Source: Chiloscyllium plagiosum (lineage: Eukaryota). Taken from it: a stretch of DNA of 45,807 nt. Shown in pieces: positions 21,021-43,335 of the stretch. The translations under genes and the position numbers were made by a program. The notes beneath the pieces were generated by a model. That model was not told where the DNA came from. It saw nothing but the letters and a program-made list of their open reading frames with translations, and did not search any database. The stretch lies in assembly GCF_004010195.1 (NCBI RefSeq), contig NC_057719.1:43454732-43500538 (forward strand), given 5' to 3'. How positions within the stretch are numbered: the stretch's first letter is position 1; every line of letters begins with the position of its first letter.

Positions 21021-21187
21021 CACTTTTTGTCATCCTCTCCACACACATACACACAAAACTTTTGCCCTTTTGTCACATTCAAATCCATCTATTTATCTTC
21101 CAAGGAGCAAAACAATGGTGGATTATGGAATTTAATTCATGCTTAGCAAGATTAAAGTAATTTCCACTTGATCAAACATTGCATGGC

Positions 21188-21467
21188 TCTGGATTAGAGT
21201 GGTGCTGGAAAAGCACATCAGTTCAGGAAGCATCCGAGGAGCAGGAAAATTGACGTTTCAGGCAAAAGATAGGTCAGGGAGGGGGGTGGGGGAAGGTAGC
21301 AAAGAGTACAATGGGTGAATGGGCCTGTATTCCTGATGAAGGGCTTTTGCCCGAAACGTCGATTTTCCTGCTCCTCGGATGCTGCCTGAACTACTGTGCT
21401 TTTCCAGAACCACTCTAATCCAGAATCTGGTTTCCAGCATCTGCAGTCATTGTTTTTACCCCTTTTA
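21188..21467 (+). mobile_element. Fold-back PLE mini-insertion A (family 1) with 14-bp TSD
   Basis: Inverted arms about 21188-21268 and 21344-21424, then a tail; TSD aaacattgcatggc at 21174-21187 and 21468-21481. Confidence 0.88.
21329..21364 (+). ncRNA. Minimal type I hammerhead ribozyme motif (PLE type), core intact
   Basis: attc-CTGATGA-a-GGGC tttt GCCC-GAAAC-GTC-gatt; helix I has one U.U mismatch. Confidence 0.7.
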
Positions 21468-21595
21468 AAACATTGCATGGCCCCAAAAATATTCCTAAAT
21501 ATAATAATTTGCAAACCAAAGTGAGGGTTTAAGTAAGGTTTTACAGTACAACTCCTTCTCAATTGCATAAGCATAGATTAAAAACAAACTTGCAC

Positions 21596-21727
21596 CTTTA
21601 ATAAAGGATGTATTTTATCCACTGGTAAAAGAAGAGGATTCCTCCTTCTACGTTTCTCAATAGCAGACTGTGCATCAGCAATAGCCCATTTGTCAATTGG
21701 GTGTGGGAAAGATTTCTGAACACGTTC
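21596..21727 (-). CDS. SOS2: SOS2 coding exon 3, 132 nt (not in the ORF track)
   Basis: Manual translation [44 protein letters not shown]; acceptor cttag| and donor |gtgcaa; phase 0/0. Confidence 0.96.
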
Positions 21728-38960: not shown

Positions 38961-39400
38961 TAGTGAGTTTTGAGAAGATTTGTAGCTCAGGTTGAGGTTT
39001 TGGATGTACGTTTCCTCGTTGAGCTGGAAGGTTCATTTCCAGATGTTTCGTTACCCTGCTAGGTAACATCTTCAGTGGGCCTCAGGTGAAGCAATGCTGA
39101 AACTTCCTGCTTTCTAACAAAGACACACACGAGAATCTCTAGATGCAGGGCATCCCAACCGAAACTCCATCAACAAACACATCGAGTTAGACCCCATCTA
39201 TCACCCCCTGAGAAAAGGAACAGGAAGTGACCACCACAGGAAATAACATCACAGGAAATGACATTGCAAACCCAAAGAAACCCAAACATATAAATAGAAA
39301 GCAGGAAGTTTCAGCATTGCTTCGTCTGAGGTCCACTCAGTAGGGTAACAAAATGTCTGTAAATTAACCTTCCAGCTCAGTGAGCAAACCTACATCCAAA
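38961..39400 (-). mobile_element. Fold-back PLE insertion E (family 2) with 12-bp TSD
   Basis: 37-nt tail, arms about 38998-39116 and 39295-39401; TSD acagcatattgt at 38949-38960 and 39401-39412; homologous to the termini of the GIY-YIG element at 42301-43235. Confidence 0.9.
39039..39078 (-). ncRNA. Minimal hammerhead ribozyme motif (family 2)
   Basis: Minus strand CCA-CTGAAGA-t-GTTACC tagcag GGTAAC-GAAAC-ATC-TGG; helix I and II pair, helix III palindrome has decayed from ACGT to ACAT. Confidence 0.65.
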
Positions 39401-41351
39401 ACAGCATATTGTATCTGGATGGGGTGGATCTAGATAGGGTTGACTTGAACTTGTTCTGATGGCCCCTGATTCATTTTTCAAAACTATACAAATGAGATTA
39501 TAAGAGGAAAAAGTACAGTAAGATGGATCACATTTTAAGTGTATTTTCTAAGACTGATAAGTAAATATTATAAGCCTTTTACATGCAATTTTCCCCTCTG
39601 GTCAGTCATGCAACATACTATATAATGCAAAAAACCTAGCTGAAACGTAGCACATGAACCAGTCACATTTTTGGTTGCATTTGGAGAATAATAAGTTATA
39701 AACCATACTCAAAGTTCTATAATACTAATCTGCTCCCATTACCTATAAAAGGTGAGAATATTGTAGAATATAAAACAAAAAAAAATTCTTAATTTAAGGT
39801 GACTTAAAAATATCCCAACCCATTTCGGTCAGAAATTCTGTTCTATTTAAATTGTACCACACAAAGCATAAATACTGTGATTTAAAAATAAATTATTGTT
39901 GTAAGCTGCAAGTACTTTTCAGAAACTAGGCACCTATTGTCAGTCACTTTGCAAAATTGGCTAAAATCAAACGACAGTTGAAGTCAATATGCAAAGCAAG
40001 AGTTATATTGCAAAAATTGTCAACTATATTTGGTAATGGTAAATAATGCATTCACCTACTATCGGAAAGCAAGCAAATATGGAAAGCATCTTAACCAAAT
40101 CAATATGTTTTTGAAAACACCTCTATTTCCAGTTTGCTGCGTTAGAAGAATCTGTTTTATTTATGCTACCTCACGCTAGAATTTAATTTAATAACGCCAA
40201 TCCATAAAAGGTTACTTACAAGAAAGATAATTTAAAATCTAATAAACTGTGGATCTGCAAGGAATGTAATTGAATCAATTTCAAAGTAAAATAGTTTCAC
40301 CTGTAACAATGTTTTTGAGAGATCTGTCATGGCATTTTTCTCCCCAAAACTGATAGTTAGATAAACACAAAAAAAAGATGCTTGTTCTCTTGGACAACAT
40401 CGTAAACATAAAGTGACCATTCAAACCATACTTCTGATTTTCTGTGACAAAAGCTTACACTCAGACTATATATACAGAATTCTACCAATATGAATATTGC
40501 ACAATAAACGACTGCAGTTTAACGGTAGTTGTGTTTTATTATTAAATACACATCCGTTCAGCTTATTTATCCTTCTCTAATACCAAAATTACTTTCAGGT
40601 TGTTATTTGAAGAATGTAATGTAGTAGCTTTAGAACTAATTTTGAAGCCAAATGTTTGTTTGTTTTAAAAGCTGCAGAAACTTCAAAGCAGACAATGGAA
40701 ACATGGAGATTAAAAGGTAAATATCACAAAAACGTCTTTTTTAAAAAATGTTATATGAAGAAGATCATGAAATATTAGACAATGAAAAGAATTGAAGAAA
40801 ATAAAACAAAAGGAAATAGGAACATCAGTACGTCAATGCATGAAAATAATCAGAACAGTTTTGCGTGTGATTTCTTATTAAGAGTTCTTTTAGTCTGGAA
40901 TTAAGGGATTCAGGGCCCTAACATCATTGACAAGACATGTCATGCAAAAAGTGGCATAAACATCAATCACTTTTGCCTCACCTTTCGAGAATATTATATT
41001 TTCACAAAAAATTGCTGGACATTCTAATTAATAAGGGTCCACTGTTGTTTATCATTTACATAAATAATTCAGATGAAAATTTTGGAGCCATGGTTAGAAA
41101 GTAGGAGATAACACCAAGATGGGTGTTATAGTCGACAGTGAAAAAGATTATCTAAGATTATGAAGGGATCTTGATCAACTGGGCCAACGGGCTGCGGACT
41201 GGCAGGTGGAGTTTAATTTGGATAAACAAGAGATATTGCATTTTAGTAAGATGAACAAGGGCAGGACTTGTACAGTTAACAGTAGGGCCCTGGGTAGTGT
41301 TGTCAAACAGGACCTAGGAGTTCAGATACATAGCTCTTTGTAAATTGCGAC

Positions 41352-43335
41352 ACTCAGAGCGTGAGCAGATCAACCGGCAGACGTCTTCTCGGACATCTTC
41401 ACCCTCTCCCTGCTGCAGGCCACTGTCCCTGCCTGTTTCAAGAGTGTCAACATCAACCCTGTGCCTAAGAAGGCTCATGCAGCATATAATCAATGATTAC
41501 CGCCCAGTGGCCATAACTTCGGAGGTCATGAAGTACTTTGAAAGGTTGGTCATGGCATTAATCAACTCCAGCCTCCCCACTACTCTTGACCCACTGCAAT
41601 TTGCCTATTGGAGCAACAGATCCATATCAGGGGCCATATCATTTGCCCTTCCCTCCTCCATAGAATATCTTGACACCACGAACAGCTATGTAAGAATCAT
41701 ACTCGTTGACTACAGTACAGCCTTCAACACTATTATCCCGAGACTGATTACTAAACTTAGTGATCTTAGACTAAGCTCCACTCTCTGCAACTGGATCCTG
41801 TTTCCTGACCCACAGCCACAATCAGCGCAGATTGGGGACAATATCTCATCCTCACTAACACTCAACACTGGAGCCCCCCCAGGGGCTGTACTCAGCCCCC
41901 TACTGTACTCACTCTATACCCATGACTGCGTTGCCAATTATCAGACTAAGGCCATTTACAAGTTTGTTGATACTACCACTATAGTCGGTCGAATCTCAGA
42001 TGGCAACAAAATAGACTGCAGACGGGAGGTAGAAGACCTGGAAAAATGGTGCACTGAGAACAACCTAGCTCTCAATGCCAGCAAAACCAAGGAACTCATT
42101 ATTGACTTTCAGCAAAAGATTATTCATGCCCCCCTACACATTAACAGCATAGAGGTAGGACGAGTGGAGAGTGTCAAGCTCCAGGGAGTGGTCATCCACA
42201 ACAAGCTTTCTTGGACTCTTGATTGGACGCACTGGTTACAAAGGCCCAACAACTTCTCTTCTTCATCAGGCAACTGTTGTTAACTATTATTTACTTATCT
42301 GGATGCGGGTTTGCTTGCTGAGCTGGAAGATTATTTTCAGACATTTTGTCACCACAGTAGGTAACATCTTCAGTGAGTCTCTGAATGAAGCACTGGTGGT
42401 GTAGCCCACTTTCTATTTATATGTTTGAGTTCCCTAGGGTTAGTGATGTCATTTCCTGTGGTGACATTATTTCCTGTGGTGATGTCATTTCCTGTTCTTT
42501 TTCTCAGGGGGTGGCAAATGGGATCCAAGTCAATGTGTTTGTTGAGAGAGTTCAGGTTGGAATGCCATGTATCCTGGTGGCTAGTTTTTTTGCCTTTTGT
42601 CCTACTCAGACCCCTTGGCATCACGGTAGCCCACAAACCCAACAAACCACTAAAACAGCAGCTAATGAACTTGAAAGACCCGATACAGATAATAAGCAAA
42701 ACTAATGTCATTTACAAAATACCTTGCAAGAACTGTAACAAACACTATATTGGACAAACAGGCAGAAAACTAGCCACCAGGATACACGAACATCAACTAG
42801 CCACAAAATGACATGACCCACTCTCATTAGTATCCTTACATACGGATGAAGAGGGACAGCACTTCAACTGGGACAACACATCCACCCTAGGACAAGCCAA
42901 ACAGAGACACGCATGAGAATTCCTAGAATTGGCATTGCAACTGAAATTCTATCAACAAACACATTGACTTGGATCCCATTTACCACCCCCTGAGAAAAAG
43001 AACTGGAAATGACATCACCGTGGGAAATGATGTCACCACAGGAAATGACATCACTAACCCTAGGTAACTCAAATATATAAATAGAAAGTGGGCTACACCA
43101 CCAGTACTTCATTTGGAGGCTCACTGAAGATGTTACCTAGTATATTGACAAAATATCTGAAAACGAACCTTCCAGCTCAGTGAGCAAACCTACATCCAGA
43201 ACTTCAATCTGAGCTAGAAATCTTCTCAAAGCTCAATTTACTTATCTATGCTACTTAACTATGTGATCTGCCTGTATTGCTCGCAAGACAAAACTTTTCA
43301 CTGTGCCTCAGTACATGTGATAAAAATTCAATTCA
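41352..43335 (+). mobile_element. Rex1/Babar-clade LINE, 5'-truncated RT, itself split by a PLE
   Basis: NDYRPVAITSEVMKYFERLV, LDPLQFAY, DYSTAFNTI, GAPPGAVLSPLLYSLYTHDC, WCTENNLALNASKTKELIIDF; (aattc)n tail at about 43325-43335. Confidence 0.9.
42301..43235 (+). mobile_element. Penelope-like element F (family 2) with GIY-YIG endonuclease, inverted 5' arm and 12-bp TSD
   Basis: NVIYKIPCKNCNKHYIGQTGRKLATRIHEH; arm 42298-42570 is inverted to about 42930-43200; 35-nt tail; TSD atttacttatct at 42289-42300 and 43236-43247; decayed hammerhead at 43121-43160. Confidence 0.93.

Follow-up and report, generated by a model that had tools for sequence, protein, structure and literature searches.

Insertion units in the window and in other animals

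A stretch of 45,807 nt from Chiloscyllium plagiosum (contig NC_057719.1, positions 43,454,732 to 43,500,538 of assembly GCF_004010195.1), hereafter called the window, was analyzed with respect to a set of small inverted units, which an earlier note made from the sequence alone had described as fold-back insertions of Penelope-like elements (PLEs). The window is shark-like intronic DNA. Comparison of the window with itself bore out the six inverted units and two sequence families of that description. The six head-to-head pairs are 157-935 bp in size; A to D make up family 1 and E and F family 2, the two families have no sequence similarity to each other, and D and E are minus-strand insertions (Table 1). 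In both families the tail-less arm ends at a fixed position while the other arm runs on for 35-37 nt of family sequence. This one-sided tail, also reported earlier, measured about 36-41 nt in C and 35-37 nt in the other five units, with an extra 7-8 letters in A and D. The best explanation of A-F is that they are dead-on-arrival, 5'-truncated insertions of two endonuclease-bearing PLE families, and the arrangement of their arms probably results from twin priming at fixed sites.

As the note had stated, A, B, D, E and F each stand between exact direct repeats; 3 of 3000 random window pairs reached a repeat of at least 12 bp. For D, which is inserted in a CR1-like element, two other CR1 copies in the window hold the duplicated 14-mer once, with matching flanks. 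These copies serve as a paralogous empty site, so that the D repeat is a true target-site duplication (TSD). No TSD was established for C: its best candidate was matched by 7.7% of random pairs, and the imperfect repeat of about 15 bp previously assigned to it overlaps the arm itself.

Table 1. Positions in the window of units A to G and of their parts (LINE, long interspersed nuclear element; ORF, open reading frame).
Feature	Position	Strand	Remarks
A left TSD	21174-21187		14 bp, exact match; right copy 21468-21481
A tail-less arm	21188-21322	minus	21188-21268 pairs with 21344-21424
A inner part of tail-less arm	21269-21322		Upstream family sequence, inverted; from repeat depth and opposite-strand read joints
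A tailed arm	21323-21467	plus	Hammerhead core 21333-21360, intact, minimal; tail 21425-21460 plus 7 extra letters
B	27817-28076	plus	TSD 27817-27831 / 28062-28076, 15 bp
B arms	27833-28061		Tail-less 27833-27923; tailed 27924-28026; tail 28027-28061
C	29512-29787	plus	Near-symmetric arms 29520-29629 / 29630-29740; tail to ~29781
C candidate TSD	29512-29519 / 29780-29787		7/8 bp
D	30292-30476	minus	TSD 30292-30305 / 30463-30476, 14 bp; inside CR1-like LINE 3' end
D arms	30314-30462		Tail 30314-30350; tailed 30351-30411; tail-less 30412-30462
E	38949-39412	minus	TSD 38949-38960 / 39401-39412, 12 bp
E arms	38961-39400		Tail 38961-38996; tailed 38997-39116, hammerhead core 39042-39075; tail-less 39117-39400
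F	42289-43247	plus	TSD 42289-42300 / 43236-43247, 12 bp
F arms	42301-43235		Tail-less 42301-42602; tailed 42603-43200; tail 43201-43235
F GIY-YIG endonuclease remnant	42602-42928	plus	Penelope/Poseidon-type ORF; two in-frame TGA stops
G	45256-45521	minus	Seventh family-1 piece, outside the six-unit set; 250-nt tail-less arm
G hammerhead core	45314-45341	minus	Intact
G possible tail stub	45507-45521		~15 nt resembling tail end

With respect to the arms, the note had pictured every unit as a long tailed arm with a short inverted copy of it, and this fails for A and E. The tail-less arm of E is ~284 nt long versus ~156 nt for its tailed arm, and the additional stretch codes for the ORF's C-terminus, which is absent from the tailed arm. 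In A the tail-less arm extends ~75 nt further upstream than the tailed arm. Read depth over the 54-nt 'loop' of A was ~900-2,750 compared with 0-3 in the unique flank, loose read ends were observed before 21323, and opposite-strand joints to the start of the tailed arm were found at 21276/21323 (191 reads) and 21288/21323 (154 reads). Because of this repeat depth and the total of 345 opposite-strand reads to 21323, the loop is read as inverted upstream family sequence. The consensus of the loose read ends suggests that the tail-less arm of A also carries an internal deletion of ~43 nt which removes the 5' half of its hammerhead. The tail-less arm of F omits ~144 nt of template and then resumes for a final 35 nt, and that of E has a 12-nt gap in its hammerhead, so that three of the six tail-less arms (A, E and F) have internal gaps. 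All six junctions differ. The letters ATCCAGA stand at the tail-less boundary in both A (21424) and F (43200), though the two families are unrelated; the motif is variable in other copies and its sharing may be due to chance.

To examine the geometry outside sharks, 79 related GIY-YIG element loci were taken from metagenome contigs. Of these, 40 matched one of six family-end queries, and in 13 a sense end was seen together with an inverted one. A TSD was sought in 12 of the 13 (L069 runs off its contig) and seven scored above the null (P <=0.003); L003, L040, L052, L057 and L067 did not pass and were excluded from the counts of TSD-bounded units given below. All seven TSD-bounded loci had one tailed and one tail-less end, and in four of them the tail was carried by the short inverted arm, so that a short copy of a long tailed arm does not describe these loci either. 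Tailed and tail-less arms measured 167 and 568 nt in L027, 63 and 620 nt in L045, 45 and 531 nt in L060, and 266 and ~1,985 nt in L038. Among the loci lacking a TSD, the tail was on the short arm in L040 and on the long arm in L067, and L003 and L057 showed no clear arrangement. Four of the six tail definitions were derived from these outside loci, and other loci end at the same positions. Units with a tail at both ends were found neither among the 13 outside loci nor among the inverted repeats of the window.

Further pieces related to family 1 were present in the window. No TSD was found on searching the flanks of G; its tail stub, if real, could represent an extreme case in which a long tail-less arm is joined to a stub of the tailed arm. 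An older and diverged family-1-like unit at 37101-37275, with a short left inverted arm, a hammerhead remnant and a tail-like end, looks like a decayed fold-back; visual inspection showed no clear TSD. Two family-1-related remnants with a single arm were seen at 11340-11420 and 34870-34960, both on the minus strand.

Identity, abundance and ribozymes of the two families

The GIY-YIG ORF which the note had ascribed to F was confirmed as a remnant broken by two TGA stops. It matched the Pfam GIY-YIG model with an E value of 5.6e-4, below the curated cut-off, and was 87% identical over 69 aa to a zebra-shark protein (P0002) which matches RVT_1 and PF26215. A further such protein with a reverse transcriptase (RT) domain (P0003) aligned along F and E through the hammerhead region. 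The GIY-YIG match, the identity to an RT protein and the P0003 alignment together argue that family 2 is the 3' end of a Penelope/Poseidon-type element. The window does not contain the RT of this element, and the proteins closest to the F ORF came from Stegostoma, Chiloscyllium and Hemiscyllium. By sequence, E and F almost certainly belong to an endonuclease-bearing (EN+) PLE. A Chiloscyllium protein annotated as a MAP3K7 isoform (P0008) includes a segment 70% identical to the GIY-YIG part of family 2 and is probably a gene model that includes a repeat.

The PLE origin proposed for both families is established in this manner for family 2. Family 1 is very probably also an EN-bearing PLE, as indicated by its minimal hammerhead, its tail and its variable TSD, and the searches linked it to no ORF. 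Translations from upstream of G gave no match among 84 candidates in a word-indexed search of longer proteins, and a full HMMER scan of a second frame gave 0 matches, with two of three frames covered; these protein searches are weak tests if the region is non-coding. Reads extended family 1 upstream by 30 letters. With DNA patterns, 0 matches were obtained for family 1 in metagenome and viral contigs and 0 for family 2 in viral contigs. The direct, partial-tandem arrangement that the pseudo-long terminal repeats (pLTRs) have in full-length PLE copies does not occur in the window; in 16 reads the tail end was joined back to the hammerhead (21460 to 21338).

Family 1 accounted for 132,863 of 12,895,792 reads (one run, same species label) on 252 bases, or ~1%, with a peak of ~55 arm copies per Mb of reads, and was also present in contigs of two related species. 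From reads and contigs 560 joints were listed. Among 15 of the 560, 313 reads held fold-back joints that clustered where the hammerhead begins on its 5' side (21329-21333), and 103 reads joined 21329-21331 to 21364-21368, 3-7 nt beyond the cut site at position 21361 of A, thereby linking both strands of hammerhead helix I. A transcript start was considered for the cluster at 21329 and set aside, as the subfamilies begin to diverge from A at this same position. Tail ends were sharp, with loose read ends at 21460 (9,361 reads) and, for another subfamily, at 21448. The tail-to-core read depth was 0.37, which does not measure the share of tailed arms because subfamily divergence clips reads before the tail.

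Arm-to-arm divergence ranged from 1.9% (D) to 13.9% (C), mostly transitions, and the insertions therefore differ in age. Within the window the arms of A, B, D, E and F were each closest to their own partner; the exception was C, to which an arm of B was as close as or closer than its own partner. A, B and D belong to different subfamilies, as do E and F. Since arms are closest to their partners and junctions differ, the units appear to have been made anew at each insertion and not propagated as a hairpin family. The independent truncation favored in the note is thus supported by arm pairing in A, B and D (not C), by the differing junctions and by the 560 listed joints.

Sequence comparison indicates a minimal type I hammerhead in the terminal repeat. 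Hammerhead motifs had been claimed for each unit; a complete core was found in two of the 12 arms of A-F, namely the tailed arm of A and the tailed arm of E (with a change in stem III). A full core with stem II was seen in these two arms and in G, where helix I is 4 bp, and was decayed or absent in the remaining 10 of 13 arms. D has no hammerhead, and its tailed arm begins at the cut-site position. A scan against Rfam gave 13 matches at E values up to 5, none of them a hammerhead, all below the gathering score and mostly to microRNA models. The tail of family 2 folds with the pLTR end into a stem-loop at the tail boundary (z of -2.5 and -1.4 versus shuffles). In 14 tailed ends from the outside invertebrate loci, tail and pLTR end form a 9-pair helix in which 94% of cells are paired, and the tail-less boundary sits in the loop of this helix; 1 of 500 shuffles scored as high.

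Probable priming at two fixed sites and alternative explanations

All 12 TSD-bounded units, five from the window and seven from other animals, combined a tailed end with a tail-less one. Under independent choice of each end at equal odds, the probability of this result would be 0.5^12 = 2.4e-4. In half of the 12 (A, E, L027, L045, L060 and L038) the tail-less arm holds template which is missing from the tailed arm. Both arms are most simply explained as RNA-templated, because a copied arm cannot hold template that the tailed cDNA never reached, and plain snap-back copying cannot yield the extra template in the tail-less arm. The tail-less end stands at a fixed place within each family, which supports a fixed second start site, and the internal gaps in the tail-less arms of A, E and F are consistent with that arm having been made on its own.

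The protein of the Anolis Poseidon element, a predicted dimer, nicks and extends both target strands in vitro, with RT starting at two sites which bound the tail (Frangieh et al. 2024, PMC11167929). That element, PAc of Anolis carolinensis, has the same C-terminal GIY-YIG, a pLTR hammerhead and a tail with two fixed ends, and a stem-loop whose loop is AC-rich is found at the tail boundary of both PAc and family 2. The available passages of the paper do not tie the two start sites to the presence of inverted repeats or of a single tail in each insertion, and the words 'inverted' and 'tail' gave no match in its three text supplements.

We consider fixed-site twin priming the probable origin of units A-F. 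A PLE protein would nick both target strands 12-15 bp apart, the distance being that of the TSDs observed here. Each 3'-OH would then prime RT on the element RNA, one at the tail end and the other where the tail starts, ~35 nt upstream. One RT start site would belong to each nick, with a single RNA or a protein dimer presumably serving both. The two cDNAs would extend toward the 5' end of the RNA and stop independently, often near the hammerhead; the arm lengths are observed, and the cause of the stops near the hammerhead is a supposition. Their 3' ends would be joined head-to-head over 0-4 nt of microhomology and then filled in. Such a process would leave one tailed and one tail-less end, with either arm the longer, within one TSD. 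In twin priming of L1, both target nicks prime cDNA on the element RNA and part of the insert is inverted; the second primer there uses a variable internal site and usually no long duplication is formed. In contrast, the second site proposed here is fixed ~35 nt from the first, so that both arms copy the same template.

Several points weigh against this account. Once inserted, long palindromes are known to undergo loss on one side of the centre, which could shorten the tailed arm at a later time. B, C and D are near-symmetric, with centres of 14, 2 and 8 nt, and snap-back gives the same shape; likewise, the joints across helix I fit self-priming as well as they fit the annealing of two cDNAs. 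Tails of family 1 fold no better than shuffles (z of -0.1 to -1.0), and the compensatory two-sided changes in the tail stem of the outside loci come mostly from one subclade (L038 and L043). Because these loci were picked by their GIY-YIG match, one of their arms is always long, and several of them belong to one family. L052 (1497-3525), with two tail-less ends and a 6-bp candidate TSD (P = 0.05), possibly departs from the one-tail rule. Finally, no strand difference in RT start site was observed in vitro in the available text of PMC11167929, and the rule of one site per nick is for that reason not demonstrated in vitro.

A second explanation is that the tail-primed cDNA copies itself by snap-back, that the resulting hairpin is opened by the endonuclease where the tail begins, and that sequence is later lost asymmetrically from the centre, leaving either arm the longer. 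Self-priming has been proposed for PLEs (PMC3846280), as has resolution by the endonuclease (PMC8557442), and this route would account for near-symmetric B, C and D, for the cluster of joints at the two strands of helix I and, without extra assumptions, for the one tail per unit. We nevertheless regard it as unlikely to have formed the set, since it requires a later one-sided loss of ~75 to 1,700 nt in six of the 12 units, whereas the asymmetric loci include arms still 89-96% matched to their family, and it leaves the second in vitro RT start site at the tail boundary unused. Both routes, twin priming and snap-back, may operate.

It is improbable that the two nicks prime on separate RNAs and that each may use either start site, in which case the one-tail rule would be a product of chance or ascertainment. 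Such freedom would explain why either arm can be the longer and would agree with the two tail-less ends of L052 and with the report of no strand difference in start site in vitro (PMC11167929), but all 12 TSD-bounded units are mixed, and tail/tail units number zero across the 13 outside loci and the window inverted repeats.

The note had left open that A-E form a retrozyme-like, non-autonomous family whose hairpin units are transcribed and inserted again. The units are small and their copy number is very high, and these features and the joints at the hammerhead edges could be taken in its favor. However, no junction is common to two window copies, the copies belong to different subfamilies and 560 joints were listed; the hammerheads stand head-to-head, in no unit are two cores intact, and D is without a ribozyme, whereas retrozymes are tandem head-to-tail units according to the available text of a preprint (10.64898/2026.07.22.740005). 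This origin is very improbable. As the note had held, the units are not miniature inverted-repeat transposable elements (MITEs) of a DNA transposon, a reading invited by small palindromes between direct repeats and to be dismissed in view of asymmetric ends with one unpaired tail in the units checked, TSDs varying from 12 to 15 bp (12, 12, 14, 14 and 15) and, refuting it outright for family 2, arms that are the 3' ends of an RT plus GIY-YIG ORF.

Surroundings of the units and relation to known elements

An exon on the minus strand at ~8650-8809 matched human SOS1 (PDB match, E value of 1.8e-19). Further SOS-like minus-strand exons, judged by motifs, lie near 16620, 21600-21750 and 26680, and the residues are reminiscent of SOS2. 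Insertion A stands ~130 nt from an exon of this Son-of-sevenless gene. Directly to the left of F, at 41318-42283, is a 321-codon RT remnant (Pfam RVT_1, E value of 2e-17) of another retroelement; it was ruled out as the RT of a PLE when PLE proteins failed to align there. Oppositely oriented CR1-like LINE pieces at 15241-16200, whose outer ends have short inverted matches (21 nt, 95%), form a possible inverted LINE insertion. A tandem repeat of ~36 nt occupies 45521-45688, immediately after G.

The architecture of the units is already known, and they are ordinary PLE insertion products. The novelty implied by the note fails, as an inverted pLTR, a one-sided tail and a TSD were described previously (PMC3846280, PMC8557442). 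Arkhipova et al. (2013, PMC3846280) reported pLTRs in inverted orientation, TSDs of 8-10 bp and a 31-bp tail that is optional, and proposed self-priming, while Craig et al. (2021, PMC8557442) called the origin of PLE inverted repeats with a one-sided tail unresolved. The EN+ PLE units of these papers show the same inverted head-to-head 5'-truncated copy, 30-40-nt tail at a single end (which may be either one), TSD and pLTR hammerhead. The units studied here differ in being only 157-935 bp and very abundant, with TSDs of 12-15 bp as against 8-10 bp in rotifers, and the available passages give no comparison of arm lengths. Inverted pLTRs and short 3' extensions are treated as standard in a curation guide (PMC8969392). 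The minimal hammerhead of metazoan PLEs, for which opposite-strand pairs 100-700 bp apart were noted (Cervera and De la Pena 2014, PMC4209133), has the same conserved core, no stem-III loop and the 4-bp helix I seen in G, whereas most cores in the window are decayed. Non-LTR retrozymes (10.64898/2026.07.22.740005) are likewise non-coding, carry a type I hammerhead and are related to PLE pLTRs; they are tandem, and the window units are single head-to-head insertions with TSDs.

What the present analysis adds is geometry, namely that each unit has one tail and that either arm may be the longer. Literature searches, in which subscription papers were mostly outside coverage, found no statement of a paired-priming (twin-priming) model of PLE inversion, no description of a shark PLE and no paper on PLE structure. 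The paired-priming model follows closely from published results.

For annotation, stubs of this kind resemble MITEs or microRNA hairpins to automated tools, and family 1 alone makes up ~1% of reads. With respect to mechanism, the two counts, of tails per unit and of which arm is the longer, convert the question of PLE inverted repeats into a genome-wide tally and a single-molecule readout for which an in vitro system already exists. As a tentative extension, with the odds slightly against it, PLEs may integrate by fixed-site twin priming as a rule, with a dimer on the tail stem-loop and one nick per start site. If this were true, a single cause would underlie the TSD, the inverted pLTR and the tail on one side, and the very many natural products of this kind in sharks would allow templates cleaved by the hammerhead to be counted against uncleaved ones.

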